From the NCBI GenBank assembly GCA_903828235.1, contig CAIKLM010000148.1, forward strand, positions 5,903 to 69,902: a stretch of 64,000 nt of DNA, written 5' to 3'. This document shows, in pieces, positions 1 to 13,460 of this stretch. The position numbers were made by a program, and so were the translations under genes. The notes under the pieces are model-generated. The model did no database searches, had not been told where the DNA came from, and saw nothing but the letters and a program-made list of their open reading frames with translations. The number at the start of each line of letters is the position of its first letter. Within the stretch, counting starts at the first letter, position 1. This stretch comes from an uncultured beta proteobacterium. Its GTDB lineage: Bacteria; Pseudomonadota; Gammaproteobacteria; Burkholderiales; Burkholderiaceae_C.

Positions 1-660
1 GATGCCGCGCTGGCGGCCACCGCGCGCGAACTGCCCGTGGTGGTGACCGGCCGCTCGCTCAGGGCTCCGGGCTTGGTGGCGCTGGACTTCGACAACTTCC
101 AGGGCGCGCGGCTGGCCACGCAGCACCTGCTGGCGCTGGGGCACCGGCGCATCGGTTTCATCTGCGGCGACCTCAAGCACCCCGACGGCAAGGAGCGCCT
201 GCGCGGCCACCGCTCGGCGCTCGCCGACGCCGGCATCCGCGCCGAGCCGGCGCTGGAGCTGCCGGGCAACTTCACCGAGGCCAGCGGCCTGGCGGCCGCC
301 GAGCGGCTGATCGACAGCGGCGAGGCGTTCACGGCGCTGTTCGCATCGAATGACCAGATGGCCTTCGGGGCTGCTCTGGCCCTGCACCGGCGGCGGCTGC
401 GCGTCCCCGACGACGTGTCGCTCGTGGGCTTCGACGATGTTGCTGGCTCGGTGTACTGCGTGCCGCCGCTGACTACCGTGCACCACCCGGTTCACGAGCT
501 CGGCGAGCTGGCGGCCCGCGCGATGCTGCAGCTGCTGGCCGGCGAGATGCCGACGCTGGCGCTGCCCGCGCCGCGCCTGATGGTGCGCGAGAGCACGCGC
601 GAGCCGCGCAGCCCGCGGGCGCGACCGCAGCGCGACCCCGCGGCGCCGTTTCCGAGGTAA
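1..660 (+). CDS. LacI-family transcriptional regulator (5' truncated; ligand-binding domain)
   Basis: Frame is open from base 1 (DAALAATARELPVVV...). Typical LacI C-terminal motifs: DNFQGARLATQHLLALGHRRIGFI, FASNDQMAFG, VPDDVSLVGFDD, PPLTTV. The HTH lies outside the window. Confidence 0.92.
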   Translation, partial: DAALAATARELPVVVTGRSLRAPGLVALDFDNFQGARLATQHLLALGHRRIGFICGDLKHPDGKERLRGHRSALADAGIRAEPALELPGNFTEASGLAAAERLIDSGEAFTALFASNDQMAFGAALALHRRRLRVPDDVSLVGFDDVAGSVYCVPPLTTVHHPVHELGELAARAMLQLLAGEMPTLALPAPRLMVRESTREPRSPRARPQRDPAAPFPR

Positions 661-667
661 CCCCCGA

Positions 668-695
668 TTGACAGGCCGTCATGGCGCGCGACACT
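668..695 (+). promoter_or_regulatory. sigma70-like promoter of the GH1 gene
   Basis: TTGACA at 668-673, 16-bp spacer, GACACT at 690-695, directly followed by the operator. Confidence 0.55.
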
Positions 696-711
696 GTGAA
701 AGCGCTTTCAA
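695..711. promoter_or_regulatory. LacI-type operator 1 (TGTGAAAGCGCTTTCAA)
   Basis: Perfect 14-bp palindrome TGAAAGCGCTTTCA (697-710) with a central CG, typical of LacI-family sites. Lies between lacI and the GH1 gene. Confidence 0.88.
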
Positions 712-786
712 GACTTTCTTCCTTGCCGGTGGGTCGCCACCCGCCGTGAGGACGCGCCCGAACCGCTCCCGCTGCTTGCGCCTGCC

Positions 787-2175
787 ATGAACCCACCCCC
801 GTCGCGGTACCCGAGCCACCCCTTCGCCGCCGACTTCGTGTGGGGCGTGGCCACCAGCGCGTTCCAGATCGAGGGCGCCGCCACGGCCGACGGCAAGGGC
901 GAGTCGATCTGGGACCGCTTCTGCCGCCAGCCCGGCGCCATCGCGGACGGCAGCCACGGCGACGTGGCCTGCGACCACTACCACCGGCTCGAGGCCGACC
1001 TCGACCTGATCGCCGACCTGGGGGTGGATGCCTACCGCTTCTCGGTCAGCTGGCCGCGCGTGCAGCCCGCCGGCCAGGGCGCCTTCAACGAGGCCGGGCT
1101 GGCCTTCTACGGGCGCCTGATCGACGGACTCGCGGCGCGGGGCATCAAGCCCTACCTGACGCTCAACCACTGGGACCTGCCGCAGGCGCTGCAGGACCAG
1201 GGCGGCTGGGCCCGGCGCGACACCGTGCACCGCTTCGTGGACTACGCGCGCCACGTGGCGGCACGCCTGGGCGACCGCGTCGCCGCGATCACCACCCACA
1301 ACGAGCCCTGGGTGATGGCCGTGCTGGGGCACGAGAGCGGCCTCTTCGCGCCCGGCATCCGCCACCGGGGCACGGCCATGCAGGTGGCGCACCACCTGCT
1401 GCTGAGCCACGGACTGGCGCTGCGGGCGCTGCGCGCCGACGCCTGCCCCGCGCGCCTGGGCATCGTGCTGAACCTCTCGCCCATCGGGCCGGCGACCGAC
1501 AGCCCCGAGGACGCGGCCGCCGCGCGCCTGGAGGACGGCCGCTGCGTGCGCTGGTACATGGACCCGCTGTTCCGCGGCCAGTACCCGGCCGACGTCTGGC
1601 AGCACCTGGGCGCCGACGTGCCGCTGGTGCACGAGGGCGACATGGCCGCCATCGCCACGCCCATGGACTTCCTGGGCATCAACTACTACACGCGCGGCGT
1701 CGTCAGCGCCAGCGGCACCTGGAGCGCGCAGCACGGCGGCAAGCCGCTCACCGACATGGGCTGGGAGATCGTTCCCGAGGGCCTGACCGAGCTGCTGCTG
1801 CGCCTGCACCGCGAGTGGCGGCCGCCGGCGCTGTACGTGATGGAAAACGGCGCCGCCTTCCAGGACACGCTGGAGCACACGCCCGAAGGCCCGCGCGTGC
1901 ACGATGCCGACCGGGTGGACTACATCGCGCGCCACATCGGAGCCCTGGACGATGCCGTCGCGCAGGGCGTGCCCGTGGCCGGCTACATGGTCTGGAGCCT
2001 GATGGACAACTTCGAGTGGGCCAGCGGCTACGCCAAGCGCTTCGGCATCGTGCACACCGACTACGCGACGCTGGCGCGCACGCCCAAGGACAGCTACCTC
2101 TGGTACCGCGGCTTCCTGAGGCTGCAGGCGCAGCGCCGCGCGCAGGCCGCGCAGGCCCAGGTCCCCGTGCCCTGA
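787..2175 (+). CDS. bglA: GH1 beta-glucosidase
   Basis: FVWGVATSAFQIEG, DHYHR, YRFSVSWPR, catalytic THNEP and VMENG motifs, WSLMDNFEWASGYAKRFG. No signal peptide. Confidence 0.95.
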   Translation: MNPPPSRYPSHPFAADFVWGVATSAFQIEGAATADGKGESIWDRFCRQPGAIADGSHGDVACDHYHRLEADLDLIADLGVDAYRFSVSWPRVQPAGQGAFNEAGLAFYGRLIDGLAARGIKPYLTLNHWDLPQALQDQGGWARRDTVHRFVDYARHVAARLGDRVAAITTHNEPWVMAVLGHESGLFAPGIRHRGTAMQVAHHLLLSHGLALRALRADACPARLGIVLNLSPIGPATDSPEDAAAARLEDGRCVRWYMDPLFRGQYPADVWQHLGADVPLVHEGDMAAIATPMDFLGINYYTRGVVSASGTWSAQHGGKPLTDMGWEIVPEGLTELLLRLHREWRPPALYVMENGAAFQDTLEHTPEGPRVHDADRVDYIARHIGALDDAVAQGVPVAGYMVWSLMDNFEWASGYAKRFGIVHTDYATLARTPKDSYLWYRGFLRLQAQRRAQAAQAQVPVP

Positions 2176-2226
2176 TCCGCGGCGCGGGCACAGGCCTGCG
2201 CGTGCCGCCGGGCTCGGGGGATGCCG

Positions 2227-3699
2227 TCAGGCCCCGTCCTCGTCGCCCTTGGTGTGGTGCAGCAGCAGGCCCACCTGCGCCACGCGCCGGCCGTCCATGC
2301 CGCGCACCGCGAAGTGCGCGTGGCCCCAGTCGATGCCGTCGCCGGCCACCGGCGGCCGGCGCAGCTCGCGGGCCATCCACTCGGCCACGTCGCCGTAGAA
2401 GCCGGGGTCGGGCAGGCCGTAGAAGCCGCAGATGTCGCGCACCGGCACGCCGGGGTCGAGCGCGAAGTCGCCGAACACCTCGCGCACGGCCGGCTCGTCC
2501 TGCGCGTCGGGCAGGTTCACGTTGAACAGGCGTGCCGCCCACACCATGGTGGAGCCCTGCAGCACCAGCGAGGCCAGCACCACCACGAAGGCCACGTCGA
2601 ACAGCACGCGCGCCTGGGGCACGGCCAGCATGAGCGGGATCAGCGCCAGCACCACGGGCACCGCGCCGCGCAGGCCCACCCACGAGATGAAGCCGATCTC
2701 CTGCCACGAGAAGCGCAGCGGCTTCAGGCACAGCGCCACGGCCAGGGGCCGCGCCACGAACATCAGCGCCAGGGCCACGGCCAGCGTGGGCAGCCAGTTG
2801 TCGAGCAGGCGGCTGGGCGTGACGAGCAGGCCCAGCAGCAGGAACATCAGCGCCTGCGCCAGCCAGGCGAAGCCGTCCATGCCGGCCAGCGCGCGCTCGA
2901 CCACCTCGCCGGCACGGTGGGCGACCACCAGGCCGAACAGGTAGACGGCCAGGAAGCCCGAGCCGCCGACCCAGCCGGCGCCCCCGAACACGCCGATGCC
3001 GGCGGCCAGCAGCAGCAGCGCGGTCAGGCCCTCGGCCGTGCCGCCCAGGGGCAGCCGCTTGAGCAGCTCGCCCACGCCCATGCCGGCGAGCACGCCGATC
3101 AGCGTGCCCAGCACGGCCTGCTGGCCGAACATCCACAGCATGGCCCAGGGCGTGGCCGCCGCCGGCTGCAGCAGCGCCGCCGACAGCGTGAGCACCAGGA
3201 ACACGGCCATGGGGTCGTTGAGGCCGGACTCGATCTCCAGCGTCGACGACAGGCGCTCGCTGACGCGCAGGCCCGAGCTCTTGAGCAGCGCGAACACCGC
3301 CGCCGCGTCGGTGGAGCCGACGATGGCCCCGGCCAGCAGCCCCAGCAGCGGCGGCAGCCCGAAGGCCAGGCTGGCGGCCAGCCCCGTGAGCGCGGCCGTC
3401 ACCAGCACGCCGACGGTGGCCAGCCACGAGGCCGGCTTCAGGCCGGTGCGGAAGGTGGACAGGCGGGTGCGCAGGCCGCCGTCGAGCAGGATCACGCCGA
3501 GCGCCGCGCTGCCCACCCACAGCGACAGCTTGACGTCGTTGAAGGCGATGCCGCCCGGGCCGTCCTCGCCCGCCAGCATGCCCATCACCAGGAACACGAG
3601 CAGGAAGGACAGGCCGGCGCGGGCCGAGTACAGCCCGGCCAGCACGCTGGCGAACACCAGCAGCCCGGTGACGCCGAACGCGAGGTTCATCAGGTCCAT
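2227..3699 (-). CDS. cvrA: potassium/proton antiporter (CPA1, NhaP2/CvrA type)
   Basis: GMLAGEDGPGGIAF, STDAAAVF, LEIESGLNDPMAVFL, WVGLRGAVPVVLA, multiple TM helices, CorC-like C-terminus. Confidence 0.9.
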   Translation of the reverse strand: MDLMNLAFGVTGLLVFASVLAGLYSARAGLSFLLVFLVMGMLAGEDGPGGIAFNDVKLSLWVGSAALGVILLDGGLRTRLSTFRTGLKPASWLATVGVLVTAALTGLAASLAFGLPPLLGLLAGAIVGSTDAAAVFALLKSSGLRVSERLSSTLEIESGLNDPMAVFLVLTLSAALLQPAAATPWAMLWMFGQQAVLGTLIGVLAGMGVGELLKRLPLGGTAEGLTALLLLAAGIGVFGGAGWVGGSGFLAVYLFGLVVAHRAGEVVERALAGMDGFAWLAQALMFLLLGLLVTPSRLLDNWLPTLAVALALMFVARPLAVALCLKPLRFSWQEIGFISWVGLRGAVPVVLALIPLMLAVPQARVLFDVAFVVVLASLVLQGSTMVWAARLFNVNLPDAQDEPAVREVFGDFALDPGVPVRDICGFYGLPDPGFYGDVAEWMARELRRPPVAGDGIDWGHAHFAVRGMDGRRVAQVGLLLHHTKGDEDGA

Positions 3700-3781
3700 G
3701 GCGTCGAACCTGGTGTGTGGCGGTACGGGGCGGGCATGGCGCGGATTGTCGCCGCCGCCCGATTGCCCTCGTGGCCGGAGC

Positions 3782-3799
3782 CCGGGCCCCGGGGCCCGG
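3782..3799. terminator. GC-rich palindrome downstream of the MFS gene (possible terminator)
   Basis: Perfect 18-bp palindrome CCGGGCCCCGGGGCCCGG, 22 bp past the MFS stop. No clear U-tract. Confidence 0.4.
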
Positions 3800-3820
3800 A
3801 CGCCAGTGGGTGGGGGCGCC

Positions 3821-5248
3821 CTAGCCGCGGCCGGCCGCCAGGCCCCGACGGCGCTCGAGCTCGGCGCGCACCTCGGCGGCGCGCTGCTCGTCGAGGTCGT
3901 AGCGGCGCATGATCCACATCGCCAGCAGCGTGCCGATGATGGGCACGCCCGAGTAGAACAGGCGCAGGCCGTCCACGGCGCCCTCGGGCTGCACCGCCGC
4001 CCCCGGCGTGAAGGCCACGAAGGACAGGATGGCCCCGCTCAGCAGCCCCGCGATGGCGAAGCCGAACTTCACCATCCACCAGTAGATGGCGCCGAAGATG
4101 CCCTCGCGGCGCTTGCCGGTGGCCAGCTCGTCGAGGTCGCACACGTCGGCCGTCATGCTCATCATCAGCGTGAACAGCCCGCCGATGCCGAAGCTGAAGA
4201 AGGGCAGCGCGATCATGAACAGCCACGGCTGCCCCGGCACCATCAGCAGCCACAGCAGCACGTAGCCGATGACCGAGACGCCCTGGGAGATCATGAACGC
4301 GTTGCGCTTGCCGATCCGCCGGGACATCCAGGCCACCGAGGGGATGACGGCGAAGGTGGTGATCAGCGCCCCCACGCTGCCGAACAGCGTCGGCCAGATT
4401 CCGGCCGCCTGCGCGTTGCCGCCGAACAGGTGGTAGACGACGATGAAGAACGAGAACGCCGCCACCGTGTTGAAGGCGTTGAAGATGAAGAAGGTGGCGA
4501 AGCACAGCTTGCGGAAGGGCGGCGAGCCGAAGGCCTCCTTGAAGCCGGCGACGATCTCGCGCAGGCCGCCGCCGAGGTTGGCCCAGGTCAGCGGCACCAG
4601 CTGCTCGTCGTCGCGCGTGGAGCGGCCGGGCAGGAAGAGGGCCGGCACCATCGCCAGCAGCATGCACGCCACGCCCACCCAGACCGACAAGGTGCGCGTG
4701 GCGGTGTCGGCGTTCGGGAACCAGGCCGGGTCGTACATCACCACCCAGAACCAGGGCGCGATCACCCAGGCCCACTGCCCGATCCACTGCGCCACGGCCA
4801 TGATGCCGGTGCGCTCGTGGAAGTCGTCGCTCATCTCGTAGCCCATGGCCACGTACGGCACGCTGAACAGCGTGAGCCCCGTGTAGAAGACGAAGCTCCA
4901 GCACAGGAAGTACACGAAGTTGTAGGCGATGCCGTCGCTGCGCTGCAGCTGCCACATGGCCACGAAGCTGATGCCCATGACGATGGCGCCGACGAACACG
5001 TACTGCCGCCGCCGGCCCCAGCGCGAGCGCGTGTTGTCGGAGATGAACCCCATGATGGGGTCGGTCAGCGAGTCGTACACGCGCGGCAGGAAGAACAGGA
5101 TCCCCCACATCCAGCCCGGGAAGCCCAGGTCCTGCACCAGCACGACCATGAAGATGCCCAGCGCCGCCGGGAACATCTGGTTGGCCAGCATGCCCAGGCC
5201 GAAGGCCACCTTGTGGCCGAAGGGGACTGCCGCCCCCTTGCTCATCAT
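3821..5248 (-). CDS. MFS sugar transporter, glycoside-pentoside-hexuronide (GPH/MelB-like) family
   Basis: 475 aa from MMSKGAAVPFGHKVAFG. DSLTDPIMGFISDNTRSRWGRRR, YVAMGYEMSDDFHERT, DLDELATGKRREGIF. ATGA overlap with the upstream GH17-like gene. The long ORF-track call 3821..7039 is an over-extension. Confidence 0.9.
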   Translation of the reverse strand: MMSKGAAVPFGHKVAFGLGMLANQMFPAALGIFMVVLVQDLGFPGWMWGILFFLPRVYDSLTDPIMGFISDNTRSRWGRRRQYVFVGAIVMGISFVAMWQLQRSDGIAYNFVYFLCWSFVFYTGLTLFSVPYVAMGYEMSDDFHERTGIMAVAQWIGQWAWVIAPWFWVVMYDPAWFPNADTATRTLSVWVGVACMLLAMVPALFLPGRSTRDDEQLVPLTWANLGGGLREIVAGFKEAFGSPPFRKLCFATFFIFNAFNTVAAFSFFIVVYHLFGGNAQAAGIWPTLFGSVGALITTFAVIPSVAWMSRRIGKRNAFMISQGVSVIGYVLLWLLMVPGQPWLFMIALPFFSFGIGGLFTLMMSMTADVCDLDELATGKRREGIFGAIYWWMVKFGFAIAGLLSGAILSFVAFTPGAAVQPEGAVDGLRLFYSGVPIIGTLLAMWIMRRYDLDEQRAAEVRAELERRRGLAAGRG

Positions 5249-6984
5249 CGCGTCCAGTGCAGGTTGTCGATGCGCAGCAGCGGCAGGCCCGTCAGGTTCG
5301 GCGGCTTGCCGGTGAAGCTGTAGCGGTCGGCGATGATGAAGCGGAAGTTCACGAAGCGCAGGTCGAGCCTGGGGTTGGCGGCCACGAAGGCCGAGATCGG
5401 GATCGACACCTCGCACCAGCTGTTGGTGTTGCAGTAGCCGTACTGGCCGGGCGCGATCTGCAGGAAGGCTTCCTGCACGTCGCGGTCCTCGGTGTCTGTG
5501 CTGATGCCGACCTCGATCTTGCCGGGGTAGCCGTCGCTGCGCACCAGGAAGTTCAGGCGGCCGCCGGCAAAGTTGCTCAGGTTGGCCAGCACGCCGGTGC
5601 CGGAGTACCGGAACAGGCCCCAGCCGTAGTCCACCGGGTTGGGCGAAACCTCCAGGTGCACGCCACCGTCGGCCGAGGGCGCGCCGGCGCTGCTCTCGCG
5701 GTAGCCGGTGGTGGCGAACGGGTCCCAGCGCAGGCCGGTGGCGCGTTCCTCGCCGGCCACGGCGGCGTCGGCGAACAGCGTGTAGCGGCTGGCCGTGACG
5801 GCGGCGGCCAGCGTCGGCGGCACCCACTTCACGGCGTCGGCCTCGGTGTAGCTGCCGGGCTCGCAGGCCCAGGTCTGGCCGCAGGTGCCCAGGCCCTGCA
5901 CCACGTAGCGCGCCTGGCGGCTGGCGTTGAACAGGCCCCAGCCGTCGTCGCCCTGCTTCCAGGGCTCGTCGAAGGCCTGGAAGAAGAAGACCGCCTTCGG
6001 GCCCTGCGGGTCGCGCCGGCCCTGCTGCGCCCACAGCTGCATCGCGTCGAAGTACATCTTCTGGTTCACGGGGTGGGCGCGGAAGGCCAGGGTGGGCCCG
6101 CCGTTGGTGTCGACCGCGGCCCAGCCCGTCTCGCCCACGACCATCGGGATGGTGCTCAGGCCCAGCTTGGCCAGGCCGGCGCGGGCCGCCTCGAACTGTT
6201 TCCTCGCCTCGGCGACGCTGGCGTCGATCATCGCGCGGGCGCGCTGCGCCTCGGGCACGGACTTCTGCCGCCAGTCGTAGCGCGTGGGGTCGTAGAAGGT
6301 GTCGAGGAAGGGGTACACGTGCACGGCCGCGAAGTCCACCGTCTCGGCCACCGAGCGCGGCACCTTCGACCACATCAGCCAGTTGTCGTTCGTGGTGACG
6401 GGCTGTCGCACCGCGGCGCGCACCTTGCGCAGGTAGCCGGCCATGACCTCGGGGGCGATCTGGGCGGTGGACCACTCCACGAGCTTCTCGTTGCCGACGC
6501 TGACGGCGAGCACGATCTCGGGGTAGGCGTTGGCCAGCCGGATGCAGGCGTCGAGCTCGGCCTGGTTGTCGGCCTCGGCGGCGGCCCCGGTCACCGGGTT
6601 GGGAAACGCGCCGAGCTGCACCTTCAGGTCCAGGCCGTTGTCGCGGATGACCTGCAGCACCGTCTCGGCGAAGCCGCGGCTGCTGAACAGGCGGATGGTG
6701 CCGATGCCCGTGGCCTGCACCAGGCGCAGATCCTGCAGCACGTTGGCCGGCGTGATCACCTCGCTGGCCAGGTCGGCCGGCCCGCGCGAGGTGCGGAAGG
6801 GCGAGTAGTTGACGGCCGCCCGCGTGAGCAGGGCCTGCGGCAGCTCGCGCCGGTCGGAGGCCTGCGACACGGCGCCGGGCGTGTAGCCGCCACCGCCGCA
6901 ACCGGCCAGGCCGGTGGTCAGCGCCACCGCGAACGCGCAGGCCAGGGCGCTGCGCGGCAGCAGGAAAAGCCGGTTGGACATCAT
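5245..6984 (-). CDS. GH17-like beta-1,3-glucanase lipoprotein with C-terminal CBM-like domain
   Basis: 579 aa. Lipobox LAGC-GGGG. VNYSPFR, IRLFS, VSVGNEK (acid/base), VHVYPF, VGETGW (nucleophile), FQAFDEPWK. Aromatic-rich beta-sandwich-like tail. Confidence 0.8.
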   Translation of the reverse strand: MMSNRLFLLPRSALACAFAVALTTGLAGCGGGGYTPGAVSQASDRRELPQALLTRAAVNYSPFRTSRGPADLASEVITPANVLQDLRLVQATGIGTIRLFSSRGFAETVLQVIRDNGLDLKVQLGAFPNPVTGAAAEADNQAELDACIRLANAYPEIVLAVSVGNEKLVEWSTAQIAPEVMAGYLRKVRAAVRQPVTTNDNWLMWSKVPRSVAETVDFAAVHVYPFLDTFYDPTRYDWRQKSVPEAQRARAMIDASVAEARKQFEAARAGLAKLGLSTIPMVVGETGWAAVDTNGGPTLAFRAHPVNQKMYFDAMQLWAQQGRRDPQGPKAVFFFQAFDEPWKQGDDGWGLFNASRQARYVVQGLGTCGQTWACEPGSYTEADAVKWVPPTLAAAVTASRYTLFADAAVAGEERATGLRWDPFATTGYRESSAGAPSADGGVHLEVSPNPVDYGWGLFRYSGTGVLANLSNFAGGRLNFLVRSDGYPGKIEVGISTDTEDRDVQEAFLQIAPGQYGYCNTNSWCEVSIPISAFVAANPRLDLRFVNFRFIIADRYSFTGKPPNLTGLPLLRIDNLHWTR

Positions 6985-6998
6985 GGAGGACCTCGGAC

Positions 6999-8354
6999 TC
7001 AGAACCGGTAGTTCGCTTCGAGCGACACCCAGTTGCCACGGTTGGCCACGCGGGAGTCGACGTTCGAGAAGGCGTCGTGGGCGGGCATGCTCAGCGGCGC
7101 CAGACCCTTGCGGCGGTACCACACCGCGTTGACCGAGCCCAGGACGCTGAGCCCGCGGCCCACGTCGTAGCGCGCGCCCAGGCTGGCGAAGGTCGCCGAG
7201 TTGCCCTGGCCGCGCTCGCTGGGGTTGTCGGTGCTGGCGCGGCCCAGGTAGGTCAGGCCGGCGAAGGCCGCCAGCCTGGGGTTCACGTACTTGCGCGCCC
7301 CCAGCATGAAGTCGGTGGAGCGCGCCGGGTAGCCCGGGTTGCGCACGCCCCGGGCATCGACGCCGTTCCAGTCGACGTTGAAGGGCGTGTTCCATTGCGC
7401 CAGCGGGCCGTCGGTCAACGGCACCGCGTAGGCGCCGCTCCAGCGGTTGAAGCGCAGGCCGCCGGAGAGCTCGTAGGCGGTGCCGATCTGGTACTTGGCC
7501 AGCAGCATGAACACGCCCTGGCTGCTGCCCCCGAGCCGGGCGTCGTCGCGCTCGGCGTAGGGCGTCAGGCCGGTGAAGCCGGCCTTGGCGAAGGCCGCCG
7601 GGGCGCCGTTGCGCGCCAACTGCGCCACCGCCTCGACCAGCAGCGGGCCGCGGCCCCACAGCGCCCACAGCTCGATCAGCTCGGGCTTGTTGCGCTTGAA
7701 GGCCGTGTCGCCCTGGTCGTAGGTGGCCTCGAGCACCAAGTTGCCCTCGGCCACGAACAGCTCGCGCGAGGTGTAGCGCACGGCCGTGGTCAGGATGCCG
7801 TAGGCCGCGCCGGAATCGGAGAACGCGGTCTGGCCGATGTCGGAGGCGTAGGGGAAGTCGGGCCGGTTCCAGGCCCGGGACGGGAAGTTGCCGATCGAGA
7901 CGCTGCCGTAGTACTCGTGCGCCAGCGTGGCGCTGCGCTCGTACACCACGCCGGGCAGGTCGGGCTTGCCGTCGCGGTAGCGCTGCGAGTAGGCCGCCGA
8001 GGCCTTGAAGCCGCCCGGTAGGTCGAACCGGACGCCCAGCGTGGGCTGGATCTGCACGCTGTCGGTGGTCAGGCCGCCGTAGGCCTTGCCGAACACGACG
8101 TCGTCGGCCCAGACGAAGTGGCGGTTGGTGTCGGGCTCGCGCTGGCAGCCCTTGCAGCCGTTGCTGACGTGGGTCACGCTGGCCTTGGCGAAGCCGGTCA
8201 GCGTGAACGGTCCCCACTCGAAGGCCTGCGCCAGCGGGCTCGAGCCCAGCCCGGCCAGGCACAGCGCGAAGGCCGGCAGCCGGCGGACCGGCCGCGTGCG
8301 GCGCTCGGCGAGGCGGGATCGCGGTTCCCGGGGACGGGAGGGTGTGTGCTGCAT
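6999..8354 (-). CDS. outer-membrane porin-like beta-barrel protein
   Basis: 451 aa from MQHTPS. Signal peptide ending AQA. Alternating amphipathic strands (LGVRFDL, VRYTS, LGARYDV) and C-terminal ...EANYRF with terminal Phe. Confidence 0.75.
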   Translation of the reverse strand: MQHTPSRPREPRSRLAERRTRPVRRLPAFALCLAGLGSSPLAQAFEWGPFTLTGFAKASVTHVSNGCKGCQREPDTNRHFVWADDVVFGKAYGGLTTDSVQIQPTLGVRFDLPGGFKASAAYSQRYRDGKPDLPGVVYERSATLAHEYYGSVSIGNFPSRAWNRPDFPYASDIGQTAFSDSGAAYGILTTAVRYTSRELFVAEGNLVLEATYDQGDTAFKRNKPELIELWALWGRGPLLVEAVAQLARNGAPAAFAKAGFTGLTPYAERDDARLGGSSQGVFMLLAKYQIGTAYELSGGLRFNRWSGAYAVPLTDGPLAQWNTPFNVDWNGVDARGVRNPGYPARSTDFMLGARKYVNPRLAAFAGLTYLGRASTDNPSERGQGNSATFASLGARYDVGRGLSVLGSVNAVWYRRKGLAPLSMPAHDAFSNVDSRVANRGNWVSLEANYRF

Positions 8355-8385
8355 GGCTCGGGCCGCCTCGGGCTGGTGGTTGGCG

Positions 8386-8402
8386 TTGAAAGCGCTTTCA
8401 CA
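8386..8402. promoter_or_regulatory. LacI-type operator 2 (TTGAAAGCGCTTTCACA)
   Basis: Same 17-mer as operator 1 in reverse orientation, 32 bp upstream of the porin ATG. On the minus strand TTGACG (8431-8426), 18 bp, TATTCT (8407-8402) abuts it. Confidence 0.88.
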
Positions 8403-8513
8403 GAATACGGGTGGCGCAGGCTGCGCGTCAACGCATGGGCGCTGCGTGTTTACCCTCCCGTCGGGGCCGGGTGCCGGCGGCGGGCTGCGGCTGCGGGTAA
8501 ACGCGGGCATGAG

Positions 8514-8530
8514 TTGAAAGCGCTTTCACA
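8514..8530. promoter_or_regulatory. LacI-type operator 3 (TTGAAAGCGCTTTCACA)
   Basis: Identical 17-mer, 43 bp upstream of the GH81 ATG. Confidence 0.88.
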
Positions 8531-8573
8531 AAGAATGGCCTGCCACCATGTTGCGCACCCACCGGGGAAGCCG

Positions 8574-10910
8574 ATGAGCGTCGTCCACACCCTCCGCCAG
8601 GCCCGTCCGTCGGGCCGGGCCGCCCTGCGGGCGAAGGCCCTGGCGTTGGCGGGCACCGCGCTGGCGCTGCTGGCGCTGGCCGCGCCCGCCCTGGCGCAGC
8701 CGGTGAAGCTGGGCGAGGGCGCCTACCTGCTGACGCCCAGGCCCGGCGACAAGGCCGTGCCGCGTGCGCCGTTCCGCACCGAGGCCATGCTGAAGCGGGC
8801 GGCGCCCACCAACCAGTGGTATTCGACGCTGGCCTTCAGCGCAAAGCCCGAAGCGCTGTTCGTGCAGCCGATCACCGTGAAGACCACGCCGGCGGGCCTG
8901 GAGTTCGCGTTGCCGTCCAAGGAGGCCGTCACCAGTGTGCGGCAGGACGTGGAGATCCGCTACCCGCACCGCGACCCGCTGCTCATCAGCCCGGTGGCCT
9001 TCGAGCCCGGTGCCGCCAGGCTGGCCAACGCCGACGACTGGTCGATCGACATCTCCATGGCGCGCGGTGGCGACGAGATGCTCGCCACGGTGGCGCGCGG
9101 CCACCCCTACGCGTCGATCCGCGTCAACCGCGGCGACCTGCGCGTGCGGCTGCCCTCGGCCGGGCAACGCCTGCACGAGGGGGCCGATGCGCGCGTCGTC
9201 GCGCTCAAGGTGGGCGGCAAGACCTACGCGCTGTTCGGCCCCACCGGCGTGGCCTGGGAGTCCGCGTCGCCCACCGAGTGGACCGCACGGCTGCCGGCGG
9301 GCCGCGGCTACCTGTCGGTGGCGGCGCTGCCCGACGACAAGCCCGAGACGCTGGCCCTGTTCACGCGCCACGCCTATGCCTTCATCCGGCAGACGCGCGT
9401 GGAGTGGCGCTACGACGAGGCGGCCAGCCGCGTCGAGACCACCTTCCGGGCCCGCACCGAGGTGATGGAGGGCCCCGACCACGGGCCGCTGCTGGGCCTG
9501 TACCCGCACCACTGGTTCCGCAACGCGTCGGTGCAGGGCCGGCTCGGGCCCGCCTTCGACACCGTGCGCGGCCCGCTGCGGCTGCTGGCGGCGGCAGAGT
9601 TCACCACGACGACCACCTTCAACGGCTTCGTGCCCTTCTGGCCCGCGGCCACCGATGCCGCCCGCCTGCCGCAGCTGCGGGAGGTGATGGACCGGGACTT
9701 CGCCACCGCCAGCCGCGAACTGCAGCGCCAGGGCCGCAGCGCCTACTGGGCCGGCAAGGGCCTGCAGCGCACCATGAAGCTGGCCGAGGTCTTCGAGCAG
9801 CAGGGCGACCTGGCCCGCCGCGACCGCCTGATCGACATGGTGAAGAAGCGCGCCGAGGAGTGGCTGGGCGGCCAGAGCAGCCGCGGCTACGTGCAGCGCG
9901 ACGAGGCCATGGGCCTGGTGTCGATCTACCCCGACGAGTTCTTCGCGGTGGCCGAGATCAACGACCACCACTTCTGGTTCGGCTACTGGATCCGCTCCGC
10001 CGCCGAGGTGGCGCTGCGCGACCCGGCCTGGATCGCCCGGGAGCGCTGGGGCGGGATGTTCGAGCTGCTCATCGCCGACATCGCCACCACCGAGCGCGGG
10101 CGCGCCGACTTCCCGTTCCTGCGCAACTGGGACGCCTACGAGGGCCACACCTGGGCCAACGGCATCGGGGCGGGCGAGTTCGGCAACAACAACGAGTCCT
10201 CGTCGGAGTCGATCAACGCCTGGACCGGCCTCATCCTGTGGGGCGAGATCACGGGCAACAGGGCCCTGCGCGACCTGGGCGTCTACCTCTACGCCAGCGA
10301 GATCGAGGCCATCAACCACTACTGGTTCGACATCCACGGCCAAGTGTTCGCGCCCGAGTATCGCAACGCCGAGGTCAGCCTGGTCTTCGGCGGCATGTAC
10401 CGCCACGACACCTGGTGGATCGACGATCCGCGGCAGATCAAGGGCATCAACCTGCTGCCGGTGACCACCGCCCACACCTACCTGGGGCGCGATCCGGCCT
10501 TCGTGAAGCGCAGCCTGGCCACGCTGCCGGCCGAGACCGAGCTGTGGAACCGCATCGCCAGGAAGCCGGACCCGCCGCCGCCCAAGGACATCTGGCAGGA
10601 CATCTTCGCCATGTACCTGGCCCTGGCCGATCCGGCCGAGGCGCTGAAGACCTGGGACCGCTGGGGCTCGGTGGAGCTGGGCTCGTCGCGCAGCTTCACG
10701 CTGCACTTCATGCTCGGCCTGGAGGCCATGGGCCTGCCGGACTTCGGCATCACCGCCGACACGCCGCTGCACGCCGTGTTCCGGCGAGCCGACGGCCGCC
10801 GCACCTACCTGGCCTTCAACGCCCGCCCGGCGCCGCTGGAGGTGCGGTTCAGCGACGGCCGGCGCCTGGTGGTGCCGCCCGGCCAGCTGGGCCGCCTGAC
10901 CGTGCCCTGA
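8574..10910 (+). CDS. GH81 endo-1,3-beta-glucanase, secreted
   Basis: 778 aa from MSVVHTLRQ. Sec signal ending PALA-Q. PTNQWYS, NDHHFWFGYW, EGHTWANG and NNESSSESINAW match GH81 catalytic motifs. Confidence 0.88.
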   Translation: MSVVHTLRQARPSGRAALRAKALALAGTALALLALAAPALAQPVKLGEGAYLLTPRPGDKAVPRAPFRTEAMLKRAAPTNQWYSTLAFSAKPEALFVQPITVKTTPAGLEFALPSKEAVTSVRQDVEIRYPHRDPLLISPVAFEPGAARLANADDWSIDISMARGGDEMLATVARGHPYASIRVNRGDLRVRLPSAGQRLHEGADARVVALKVGGKTYALFGPTGVAWESASPTEWTARLPAGRGYLSVAALPDDKPETLALFTRHAYAFIRQTRVEWRYDEAASRVETTFRARTEVMEGPDHGPLLGLYPHHWFRNASVQGRLGPAFDTVRGPLRLLAAAEFTTTTTFNGFVPFWPAATDAARLPQLREVMDRDFATASRELQRQGRSAYWAGKGLQRTMKLAEVFEQQGDLARRDRLIDMVKKRAEEWLGGQSSRGYVQRDEAMGLVSIYPDEFFAVAEINDHHFWFGYWIRSAAEVALRDPAWIARERWGGMFELLIADIATTERGRADFPFLRNWDAYEGHTWANGIGAGEFGNNNESSSESINAWTGLILWGEITGNRALRDLGVYLYASEIEAINHYWFDIHGQVFAPEYRNAEVSLVFGGMYRHDTWWIDDPRQIKGINLLPVTTAHTYLGRDPAFVKRSLATLPAETELWNRIARKPDPPPPKDIWQDIFAMYLALADPAEALKTWDRWGSVELGSSRSFTLHFMLGLEAMGLPDFGITADTPLHAVFRRADGRRTYLAFNARPAPLEVRFSDGRRLVVPPGQLGRLTVP

Positions 10911-10970
10911 GCGACCTGGCCGGCCCACCCGCGACGCCCGGCCTACGGGTAAGCGAGAGGGCCGGTGCCC

Positions 10971-11018
10971 TTGCCAACGAGCCCGCATCGTCCCGATACT
11001 GTTGAAAGCGCTTTCACA
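10971..11018 (+). promoter_or_regulatory. promoter plus LacI-type operator 4 (TTGAAAGCGCTTTCACA at 11002-11018)
   Basis: TTGCCA (10971-10976), 18 bp, GATACT (10995-11000), then the identical 17-mer operator. GAGGA SD precedes ATG 11077. Confidence 0.85.
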
Positions 11019-11076
11019 GCCGCCCGCCTTCTTTGCCCGCGAGTCCGTCGACTCCGCCACCCGAGGACAGCCTGCC

Positions 11077-13164
11077 ATGACCACCCCACAGCATCGTCCC
11101 CCCTTGGCCGCCCTCGCGGCGGCGGTGTTCGCGCTCTCGCTGGCCGCCTGCGGGGGCGGTGGCGGCGAGGCGCCGCCCGATCGGCCCGGCAGCGTCGTCG
11201 CGCCGGCCGCGCCGGTGGTGACCATCACCAACAACGTCGCGGCCGAGACGGCCACGGGCCCGATCACCTTCACCTTCTCGTTCAACCGCGACGTCGGCAC
11301 CTCGTTCACGGCCGACGACGTGATGGTGACGGGCGGCACCAAGGGCACGTTCACGCGCCTGTCGGGCACCGGCGCCACGCTGGTGGTGGCGCCGACGCCC
11401 AACGCCACCGGCACGGTGCAGGTGTCGGTGGGCGCCGGCAGCGTGACCGACGCCACCGGCACGGGCAACGCCGCGGTCACGGCCGCCAAGGCCTTCGACA
11501 CCGTGCCGCCCCCGCCACCGGCGACCGGCAACGTCGTGCTGGCCAACTTCGACGACGTGCGCCCAACGGTGGCGGGCTTCGAGGGCGCCGAGGGCAGCGC
11601 CATCGAAGCCGGGCCGGCCGGCGGCGGCTCGGGCAACAGCTTCAAGGTGCTGCGCTCGGGCGGCCAGGCCTACGCCCTGGGCATCGTCGAGACGGCCGTG
11701 CCGGTGACGGCGACGCGCCGCACGATCAGCGCGCAGGTCTACTCGCCGCTGGCGGGCATTCCGATGGTCATGAAGATCGAGGGCCCGGGCGGTGCCAACT
11801 CGGGCGACGTGTCGGCCAACGAGGCCGTGGTCGTGGGCTGGCAGACGCTGACCTGGACCTTCTCCGGCGTGAACCCCGCGCAGACCTTCAACAAGATCGT
11901 GCTGCTGCCGCGCCTGGGCACGGTCGACGCTCCGCCGGGGCGCGCCTACTTCTTCGACGGCATGACGCTGGTCGAGAACGCGTCGCTGCTCGGCGGCACC
12001 GTGCTGGCCAACTTCGACGACGTGCGCCCGCCGGTGGCGGGCTTCGAGGGCGCCGAGGGCAGCGCCATCGAGGCCGGGCCGGCCGGCGGCGGCTCGGGCA
12101 ACAGCTTCAAGGTGCTGCGCTCGGGCGGCCAGGCCTACGCCCTGGGCATCGTCGAGACGGCCGTGCCGGTGACGGCGACGCGGCGCACGATCAGCGCGCA
12201 GGTCTACTCGCCGCTGGCGGGCATCCCGATGGTGATGAAGATCGAGGGCCCGGGCGGGGCCAACTCGGGCGACGTGTCGGCCAACGAGGCCGTGGTCGTG
12301 GGTTGGCAGACCCTGACCTGGACCTTCTCCGGCGTGAACCCCGCGCAGACCTTCAACAAGATCGTGCTGCTGCCGCGCCTGGGCACGGTCGACGCACCGC
12401 CGGGGCGCGCCTACTACTTCGACGGCATCACGCTGCTGCCGGCGGCCACGGGCGGGGGCGGTGCCGCGGCGCTGACCTTCTCCACCGGCTTTGCCACGGG
12501 CAACCGCACCGTGGAGGGCGGCGAGTTCGGCGGCTTCAGCGGCAGCAACTTCGACGGCTTCAACTGCGACGGCAACCCCGCCAACTGCGGTGCCGGCGGC
12601 GAGTTCGCGCCGGCGCTCGCGGCGGCCGACAGCTACTTCTTCTACTACTACCAGACGCCCAGCCCGGCCACGGCCATGTACATGGGCATCTTCGTGCAGG
12701 CGCCCGGCGTGGTGGGGGGCTTCAGCCCCTCGGCCGACACCCCCGGCGTGCAGGTGGGCTCGCAGACGACGCTGCGCTTCAAGCTGGGGCAGAACGCCGA
12801 GTGGTTCGGCTCGGCGACCAACAACTTCATGATCGTCATGGACCTCGGCAAGCGCTTCACCGCCGGTGGCGGCACCTGCCGGCTGCAGCTGCGCAGGGTG
12901 GTCACGCCCACGGCCCAGGCCGCCAGCAGCTACGCGATCCCCCTGAACTCGTTCGCCCTGGTGCAGGACTGCGCCGGTGCCGCCACCTCGGTGGCCCAGG
13001 CGCTGGCCGTCTCGCCGATCTCGCAGATCTCGTTCCAGGGCGTGGGCGGCAGCAACGAGCTGTCGGACGGCGCGCGCACCAGCGGAGCCAACCGCAGCGT
13101 GCCCAACGGCGACGGGCGCTACCCGACGACGGTGGTGCTGCAGGGCGGCATCACGATCGACTGA
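11077..13164 (+). CDS. multidomain lipoprotein: Ig-like domain, two tandem CBM-like modules, Cys-containing C-terminal domain
   Basis: 695 aa. Lipobox LAAC-GGGGG. Ig-like segment (PVVTITNN...ITFTFSF...VSVGAGSVTD), Pro linker, two 155-aa repeats, and a C-terminal domain with four Cys. No catalytic motif recognised. Confidence 0.75.
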   Translation: MTTPQHRPPLAALAAAVFALSLAACGGGGGEAPPDRPGSVVAPAAPVVTITNNVAAETATGPITFTFSFNRDVGTSFTADDVMVTGGTKGTFTRLSGTGATLVVAPTPNATGTVQVSVGAGSVTDATGTGNAAVTAAKAFDTVPPPPPATGNVVLANFDDVRPTVAGFEGAEGSAIEAGPAGGGSGNSFKVLRSGGQAYALGIVETAVPVTATRRTISAQVYSPLAGIPMVMKIEGPGGANSGDVSANEAVVVGWQTLTWTFSGVNPAQTFNKIVLLPRLGTVDAPPGRAYFFDGMTLVENASLLGGTVLANFDDVRPPVAGFEGAEGSAIEAGPAGGGSGNSFKVLRSGGQAYALGIVETAVPVTATRRTISAQVYSPLAGIPMVMKIEGPGGANSGDVSANEAVVVGWQTLTWTFSGVNPAQTFNKIVLLPRLGTVDAPPGRAYYFDGITLLPAATGGGGAAALTFSTGFATGNRTVEGGEFGGFSGSNFDGFNCDGNPANCGAGGEFAPALAAADSYFFYYYQTPSPATAMYMGIFVQAPGVVGGFSPSADTPGVQVGSQTTLRFKLGQNAEWFGSATNNFMIVMDLGKRFTAGGGTCRLQLRRVVTPTAQAASSYAIPLNSFALVQDCAGAATSVAQALAVSPISQISFQGVGGSNELSDGARTSGANRSVPNGDGRYPTTVVLQGGITID
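11536..12435 (+). repeat. intragenic direct repeat, 2 x 435 bp (11536-11970 and 12001-12435), period 465 bp
   Basis: Manual alignment gives 12 mismatches in 435 bp: 9 synonymous, 3 non-synonymous (T/P, F/Y, M/I). Confidence 0.95.
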
Positions 13165-13202
13165 CGCGGATTCCGGGGCCGGGTGCCCCGCCGCACAAGC
13201 CC

Positions 13203-13227
13203 GCGGCCCCGGCGAACCCGGGGCCGC
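13203..13227. terminator. hairpin after the lipoprotein gene
   Basis: GCGGCCCCGG-cgaac-CCGGGGCCGC, 10-bp perfect stem, no U-tract. Confidence 0.45.
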
Positions 13228-13244
13228 TGGCCATAATCGCGTGC

Positions 13245-13460
13245 ATGACCGTCTTCTACTGGGTGATGGGCGTGCTGATCATCGGCACCCTGGCGCCGGC
13301 CGCGCTGTACCTGGTGCTGTATGCCATCACCGGGGAGCCCGCCTGCGACCGCCGCGCGCGCGCCTTCTGGGCGGCCTCGCGCGTGTTCGCGCTGCTGGGC
13401 TTCAACGTCCTGGTGTGGGGCCACGTGGTGTACGGCCTGTGGCAGATCTGGTTCGACTGA
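13245..13460 (+). CDS. small hypothetical membrane protein (71 aa, 2 TM)
   Basis: MTVFYWVMGVLIIGTLAPAALYLVLYAITG...FALLGFNVLVWGHVVYGLWQIWFD. Two hydrophobic helices, GC3-rich codons, CATAAT 7 nt upstream of the ATG. Confidence 0.7.
   Translation: MTVFYWVMGVLIIGTLAPAALYLVLYAITGEPACDRRARAFWAASRVFALLGFNVLVWGHVVYGLWQIWFD

Follow-up and report, generated by a model that had tools for sequence, protein, structure and literature searches.

One palindrome ahead of four transcription units in a beta-1,3-glucan locus of an uncultured freshwater Burkholderiales bacterium: a predicted LacI-family operator and a conserved companion motif

What reads a 14-bp palindrome that is repeated, without a single change, ahead of four transcription units of one locus? 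The question is raised by a 64-kb stretch of DNA (hereafter the window; 64,000 nt of contig CAIKLM010000148.1) from an uncultured beta proteobacterium of the Burkholderiales, in which the palindrome precedes genes for a glycoside hydrolase family 1 (GH1) beta-glucosidase, a predicted outer-membrane porin at the head of an operon, a GH81 endo-beta-1,3-glucanase and a lipoprotein resembling carbohydrate-binding modules (CBMs), all of them downstream of a lacI-family gene. We consider it very probable that the four palindromes are bound by a dimer of this adjacent LacI-family protein, that the bound dimer represses the four units by steric hindrance, and that an imported beta-glucoside made by the pathway relieves the repression. 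A first-pass annotation of the same DNA had proposed the adjacent LacI as local repressor of a laminarin regulon, and the linkage, promoter geometry and gene content described below lend that proposal good support.

Operators and promoters in the window

The exact 17-mer TTGAAAGCGCTTTCACA was found at 8386-8402 (+), 8514-8530 (+), 11002-11018 (+) and 695-711 (-), precisely where the first-pass annotation had placed three direct copies and one reverse complement. With up to three mismatches allowed, the chance expectation for TTGAAAGCGCTTTCACA was 0.04 matches, and 0 of 100 shuffles reached 8 hits. The core of the 17-mer is a perfect 14-bp palindrome, TGAAAGCGCTTTCA, which starts at 697, 8387, 8515 and 11003; no further copy, including degenerate ones with up to three mismatches, occurred elsewhere within the 64 kb. 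The claim that the four operators define the regulon therefore holds for this 64 kb and reaches too far as a statement beyond it. Three of the four sites agree across 18-19 nt, and the sites recur without change in four further samples of this species (L001-L004). Since the G+C content of the window is ~72%, the A/T-rich palindrome is all the more conspicuous. Its form, TGAAAG-CG-CTTTCA, is an even palindrome with a central CG and falls within the 14-22 bp of LacI-family operators, of which evenness and the central CG are the hallmark (PMC4052901), and the same sequence as TGAAAGCGCTTTCA is the optimal cre site of CcpA (PMC5171806, PMC5483248); the earlier assignment of the palindrome to the LacI-family type was thus borne out. 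The four predicted operators are:

697-710 (17-mer 695-711, minus strand): operator 1 (GH1), 2 nt past the -10 hexamer and 76 nt ahead of the GH1 ATG
8387-8400: operator 2 (porin), 2 nt past the minus-strand -10 hexamer and 32 nt ahead of the ATG
8515-8528: operator 3 (GH81), within the promoter spacer and 45 nt ahead of the ATG
11003-11016: operator 4 (lipoprotein), 3 nt past the -10 hexamer and 60 nt ahead of the ATG

Measured from the operator centre, the distance to the ATG is 83, 39, 52 and 67 nt for operators 1 to 4. Considering that more than 75% of predicted LacI-family sites fall -140 to -30 from start codons (PMC4052901), all four are inside the usual range, and each either abuts or separates promoter hexamers. 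A consensus scan of 600-13400 returned just two sigma-70-like promoters, against 0.3 expected, and both adjoin operators. The promoter elements are:

668-695, plus strand: GH1 promoter, TTGACA (668-673), 16 nt, GACACT (690-695); read from the sequence
8402-8431, minus strand: porin promoter, TTGACG (8431-8426), 18 nt, TATTCT (8407-8402); from the scan, kept in relatives
10971-11000, plus strand: lipoprotein promoter, TTGCCA, 18 nt, GATACT; from the scan, kept in relatives
8531-8536, plus strand: GH81 -10-like hexamer, AAGAAT, which in relatives reads AACAAT; 2 nt past operator 3

The -10 hexamer of GH1 fell below the scan threshold; the position of this promoter is nevertheless kept in ~70 related species. 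Scan and sequence together agree with the earlier observation that the GH1, porin and lipoprotein sites come directly after a -10 with a matching -35. At these three promoters the palindrome begins 2-3 nt past the -10 and therefore covers about -5 to +9. At the GH81 promoter no -35 hexamer is present and AAGAAT follows the palindrome by 2 nt, so that the operator occupies the spacer; the block TTTCA-ca-AAsAAT is kept in relatives. An operator lying over the predicted transcription start or in the promoter spacer is, as judged from these positions, the geometry of a repressor, and this includes the GH81 site. The metatranscriptome contigs that matched the locus were few and short and covered parts of the porin and GH17 genes only, so that transcription is seen for these parts. 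The public sequencing runs holding this DNA were lake, freshwater and aquaculture metagenomes.

The three bases by which the 17-mer exceeds the palindrome had been taken for conserved, asymmetric flanks. They are indeed identical at the four sites of the window; between species they vary, and they overlap the -10 elements. The 'CA'/'TG' flank is made up, at two promoters, of the T that ends the -10 and one further base; at the GH81 promoter it stands ahead of the -10-like hexamer. When the window was compared with its relative L006 (95.1% DNA identity) at 695-711, 8386-8402 and 8514-8530, 4 of 9 flank positions differed and 0 of 42 core positions did, so the immediate flanks change much faster than the 4.4% average divergence. 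At the porin and GH81 sites, more distant relatives have the same flanks as the window. The family as a whole shows a preference only for T at -2 and for A at +2 (84% where the side overlaps the -10, 68% on the free side); position ±1 is weak, and the consensus extends the operator to TnTGAAAGCGCTTTCAnA. Since the flanks overlap -10 elements and differ between species, we do not count them as part of the operator, and the asymmetric flank was rejected as an operator element. The identity of the 17-mers is real and reflects promoter overlap and descent within each promoter.

The regulator and its conservation with the palindrome

The window opens within the candidate regulator gene:

1-660, plus strand: 3' part (219 codons) of the lacI-family gene, with Pfam Peripla_BP_3/1/4 domains (PF13377, PF00532, PF13407)

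Same-species contigs of other samples gave the full protein, 375 aa (L005:4257-5384), and the LacI helix-turn-helix domain PF00356 was found on that full-length product, outside the window, together with the hinge. The segment KVTLDMVAAAAGVSAATVSRILNG...PNPVARGLAGGRT aligns to the DNA-binding domains of CcpA, LacI and PurR, and PDB matches across residues 30-366 indicate a type I periplasmic-binding-protein-like effector core. The closest solved DNA-binding domains are those of Firmicutes CcpA on cre DNA (1rzr, 1zvv, 3oqm/3oqn/3oqo), which sit on the same operator sequence and whose recognition helix (S-x-ATVSR) and hinge (VARGLA) are identical or nearly so. A C-terminal heptad tetramerisation helix is absent; the tail is short, proline- and arginine-rich, and variable. 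No lacI paralogue occurs within the window. Upstream of window position 1, in the same species, lacI lies 22 nt downstream of a gene of the FAA-hydrolase family (L005:3340-4260). The N-terminus (L005:4257-4350) carries a basic, low-complexity extension of ~30 aa ahead of the helix-turn-helix, here MPEEPENVASKDSITRPRRPRRGADTAPG; an extension of this length is present in all LacI orthologues, its sequence is not conserved, and CcpA, PurR and LacI are without it.

To what extent do regulator and palindrome travel together? Alignment of LacI orthologues (66-96% protein identity) yielded a set of 80 related loci from 80 other Burkholderiales species, ~1.2 Mb in all, from the genera Rubrivivax, Piscinibacterium, Roseateles, Aquabacterium, Limnohabitans, Rhodoferax, Ideonella, Undibacterium and Pseudaquabacterium. 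Together these loci contain 90 perfect 14-mers, where composition predicts 0.001, and 74 of the 80 have one no more than 1 kb downstream of lacI, in most cases 60-150 nt past the end of the LacI match. When the upstream DNA was aligned on the operator, TTGACA was invariant at a set distance and a -10 hexamer (TATAGT, TAAATT or GACACT) ended 1-2 nt ahead of the operator, with the spacer between -35 and -10 not conserved. The porin, GH81 and lipoprotein promoters displayed the same block-wise conservation in every relative having these genes. A metagenome scan for the 17-mer listed at least 120 matches, among which ~45 homologous loci kept the same promoter blocks and kept the site linked to lacI at LacI identities down to 50-60%. 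Among the listed high-GC matches outside homologous loci none was convincing as a new member of the regulon, and many of the matches listed fell on low-GC contigs, in unrelated contexts. We read the pattern as a clear phylogenetic footprint of a predicted regulator-operator pair.

The gene families near the LacI orthologue point in the same direction across the 80 loci:

GH1: 61 of 80 loci
GH17: 47 of 80 loci
GH16: 45 of 80 loci
CUT1-type ABC transporter or GPH symporter: 21-36 of 80 loci
GH30: 21 of 80 loci

The porin, GH81 and MFS transporters likewise co-occur with LacI orthologues, and the co-occurring enzymes are the usual set for the breakdown of beta-1,3/1,6-glucan (laminarin). The locus comes from an abundant, uncultured freshwater lineage of the Burkholderiales, and the predicted switch is kept in its relatives in Rubrivivax, Roseateles, Aquabacterium, Limnohabitans, Rhodoferax, Ideonella and Undibacterium. 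The invariant 14-mer could serve as a genomic marker by which metagenomes are searched for laminarin-responsive genes, among them genes to which no family is assigned, like those for the porin and the CBM-like lipoprotein, and the repressor-operator pair could become a sugar-inducible expression tool for high-GC Betaproteobacteria.

Repression and the alternatives to it

In the mechanism that we propose, the LacI dimer would grip each TGAAAGCGCTTTCA with its hinge helices and with a helix-turn-helix like that of CcpA. Repressor bound at the promoters of GH1, the porin operon and the lipoprotein would prevent open-complex formation or promoter escape; on the GH1 promoter it would in addition stop read-through from lacI, and at GH81, seated in the spacer, it would exclude RNA polymerase. 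Secreted GH81 and the lipoprotein GH17 would cut the glucan, with the CBM-like surface lipoprotein acting in the same pathway, and the dedicated porin, the GPH symporter and then the cytoplasmic GH1 beta-glucosidase would complete it. The repressor would come off once its sugar-binding core is occupied by an imported beta-glucoside, of which laminaribiose or a short laminari-oligosaccharide is the likeliest. With one repressor and four operators at four promoters, the regulatory map of this beta-1,3-glucan utilisation locus is precise and can be put to the test.

In these respects the system works like the catalogued local LacI-family sugar repressors (PMC4052901) and like GlyR3. The latter, encoded in Clostridium thermocellum's celC operon, is a LacI-family repressor of beta-1,3-glucan-related genes that is released by laminaribiose and binds a cre-like imperfect palindrome, TGAACGCGCGTACA (PMC5483248, citing Newcomb et al. 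2007). The likeness to GlyR3 is one of operator and of predicted function, and GlyR3 differs in being Gram-positive, in being autoregulated within its own operon and in the imperfection of its operator. By analogy with it, laminaribiose is the leading candidate for the inducer. RegPrecise, in the part of its table that was covered, has BglR and CelR regulogs in Shewanellaceae, Alteromonadales, Vibrionales, Caulobacterales and Burkholderia (PMC4052901); these are predicted local LacI-family beta-glucoside repressors, with even palindromes, a central CG and co-localised regulator and targets, whereas the GH81, GH17, porin and lipoprotein content is, against that part of the table, specific to the present locus. 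The covered part of the table held no beta-glucoside regulog for the Comamonadaceae (PMC4052901). We found no description of this particular regulon in the literature, and the exact 14-mer was found there in one role only, that of the CcpA cre consensus. Among full-length structures the regulator's second-best relative was the LacI-family structure 5ysz (E=3.4e-53), which has the same two-domain architecture. We take 5ysz, whose entry title gives only 'LacI family', to be the actinobacterial CelR of Thermobifida fusca with cellobiose; its operator is presumably TGGGAGCGCTCCCA.

E. coli LacI, with auxiliary operators and looping, belongs to the same family and also has several operators per region, and here two sites (porin and GH81) lie 128 bp apart. 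E. coli LacI has a tetramerisation helix, however, whereas the regulator here is without one and the spacing of the paired sites ranges from 65 to 321 bp among relatives. For these two reasons we assign one dimer site to each promoter, and looping between the two divergent operators was rejected.

Three points weigh against simple repression by LacI as the whole account. As effector, glucose, cellobiose, gentiobiose or a longer oligosaccharide is just as conceivable. The lacI gene lacks an operator: a search of this species that allowed three mismatches found no site upstream of either lacI or the FAA-hydrolase gene before it, and autoregulation was rejected here on that ground. At least 10 relatives carry a palindrome with 1-2 mismatches ~80-110 nt upstream of lacI, and since such a site is present only in some relatives, autoregulation seems to be variable in the family. 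The third point is that a second conserved motif, which the first-pass annotation did not include, stands beside every operator, so that LacI is probably not the sole input. To a specialist the repressor mechanism is textbook and its operators are unsurprising; this motif is the sole unexpected element.

The motif, GGGTAAACRC, is non-palindromic and bears no resemblance to the operator. Each operator promoter has one copy of its 8-mer core, GGGTWAVC, and the 64 kb contains no others:

656-665, minus strand: GH1 box (GGGTTACC core at 656-663), facing away from its operator and lying just upstream of the -35
8446-8455, minus strand: porin box (GGGTAAACAC, core 8448-8455), 14 nt upstream of the porin -35
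8495-8504, plus strand: GH81 box (GGGTAAACGC, core 8495-8502), 10 nt upstream of operator 3
10947-10956, plus strand: lipoprotein box (GGGTAAGCGA, core 10947-10954), 14 nt upstream of the lipoprotein -35

In the related loci AGGGTA, GGGTAA and GGGTTA were the most enriched hexamers near operators (26- to 44-fold), equal to or above TTGACA. The 10-mer version matched 42 times at 110 nt or less from an operator and 16 times in the 1.19 Mb outside, and the general form, GGG(T/A)(T/A)A-n-C-R-C, is near-absent elsewhere in the 1.2 Mb of related loci (L006-L205). Across 198 operator sites the box fell into three sharp classes of spacing and orientation. In the GH81 type it points towards the operator with a gap of 13-14 nt; in the porin and lipoprotein types it points towards the operator with a gap of 49-50 nt, 14 nt upstream of the -35; and in the GH1/ABC type (58 operator sites in the related loci) it points away, with a gap of 34-35 nt, and touches the -35. 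The box is kept in every promoter type while the spacers diverge.

As far as sequence can indicate, the box is likeliest a site for a regulator encoded elsewhere. It is possible, though we hold this tentatively, that every operator, here and in other genera of the Burkholderiales, is paired at fixed geometry with a box read by such a regulator, for example a MalT/LuxR- or AraC-like activator, in a conserved and so far undescribed two-input logic. A factor on the asymmetric box acting besides LacI, which has in our estimate slightly less than an even chance of being correct, would extend the repressor model without excluding it. The counts, the spacing classes and the persistence of the box just described all speak for a second input, as does the GH81 promoter, where the box lies at about -48 to -39 and there is no -35 hexamer; two-input control would explain how that promoter works without one. 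LacI may also act partly as an anti-activator against the box factor, above all at GH81. Yet lacI is the sole regulator gene conserved within 10 kb in the 80 species, the good -35 hexamers of the GH1, porin and lipoprotein promoters should make an activator needless, the box is found at two distances and facing either way, and it is not known to match a described motif.

Repression by the adjacent LacI fares better against the idea that another LacI-family protein, such as a global CcpA-like catabolite regulator, occupies the sites. That the 14-mer is the ideal CcpA operator (PMC5171806, PMC5483248), and that the same 17-mer recurs in unrelated contexts on low-GC contigs, would fit such a binder. 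CcpA is, however, a global regulator that needs the corepressor HPr-Ser-P, and its control would be expected to place sites over many unrelated catabolic operons, whereas the 64 kb holds four sites at one locus and no other. The protein here is a betaproteobacterial local regulator, and since it scores 177.7 bits against the NCBIfam CcpA equivalog TIGR01481, far under the cut-off of 442.35, it is not CcpA. The linkage of the site to a lacI orthologue in 74 of 80 species, which persists in metagenome loci of 50-60% LacI identity, and the lack of a lacI paralogue in the window likewise make a different LacI-family binder very unlikely. That the repeats are a structural or mobile element instead of operators (a REP-like palindrome, terminator or RNA hairpin) is extremely unlikely, for although the palindrome is perfect four times over and one copy lies 37 nt past the lacI stop codon, transcript folding was no better than shuffled (z -0.13 to 0.32) and no terminator-like sites were found, on which grounds a hairpin or terminator role was rejected, while each copy stands in set register with the -10 and -35 hexamers ahead of a gene and the core is invariant with variable flanks.

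Genes of the locus

The genes ascribed to the four units, and one neighbour, are:

787-2175, plus strand: GH1 beta-glucosidase (PF00232, E=3.6e-153; NCBIfam BGL equivalog TIGR03356, 606 bits against a cut-off of 478)
6999-8354, minus strand: outer-membrane porin, 451 aa, first gene of its operon (predicted from an AlphaFold (AF2) model and Foldseek)
5245-6984, minus strand: GH17-like lipoprotein with lipobox LAGC (PF00332, E=5.6e-7)
3821-5248, minus strand: GPH/MFS_2 sugar:cation symporter, last gene of the porin operon (PF13347)
8574-10910, plus strand: GH81 endo-beta-1,3-glucanase with a Sec signal peptide, secreted (PF17652, E=2.2e-44)
11077-13164, plus strand: lipoprotein with lipobox LAAC and predicted beta-sandwich modules (AF2, Foldseek)
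2227-3699, minus strand: Na+/H+ exchanger gene, between the GPH transporter and GH1

Judged from gene content, the assignment of the four units together to a utilisation pathway for beta-1,3-glucan (laminarin or chrysolaminarin) is supported. GH1 has no signal peptide and is thus assigned to the cytoplasm. The operator-headed operon on the minus strand runs from 8354 to 3821 through porin, GH17 lipoprotein and GPH symporter, with the genes overlapping or closely spaced; the start of the symporter overlaps the GH17 stop. The symporter scored 191.5 bits against TIGR00792, under the cut-off of 231.35. Just residues ~266-362 of the GH17-like lipoprotein match the GH17 model, and its C-terminal ~200 residues, to which no family was assigned, may be a binding module.

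The 451-aa protein had no Pfam or NCBIfam match, though it has hundreds of homologues in freshwater Burkholderiales. The AF2 model built from 24 of these (pLDDT 68.7, pTM 0.72) had as its top Foldseek matches the 16-stranded porins BpsOmp38 and Omp32 and the sugar-specific chitoporin VhChiP (E ~1e-13), and on this model the protein is a porin. It is ~100 residues longer than Omp32, BpsOmp38 and VhChiP, and its loops are of low confidence.

The lipoprotein at 11077-13164 also had no family match. Its AF2 model (pLDDT 76) is a string of beta-sandwich modules, whose domains matched the laminarin-binding CBM X584 (8qx6, TM 0.67), Bacteroides SGBP-B (7kwb) and CBM4 in Foldseek, and the model suggests that it probably binds glucan at the cell surface. 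Through a tandem duplication of 465 bp at 11535-12435 (97% identity; TRF) it has a second copy of a 155-aa CBM-like module. Near-identical lipoproteins in other samples have 540 aa and one module, and those of relatives have ~540, 695, 850 or 980-1000 aa; from these lengths it follows that the copy number of the module varies within and between species.

The Na+/H+ exchanger gene occupies its position only in this species and its closest relative, and since it is missing from there in all other relatives we left it out of the system. Ahead of it, the 121-nt gap at 3700-3820 contains a G+C-rich palindrome, CCGGGCCCCGGGGCCCGG, without a T-run, which is possibly a terminator.

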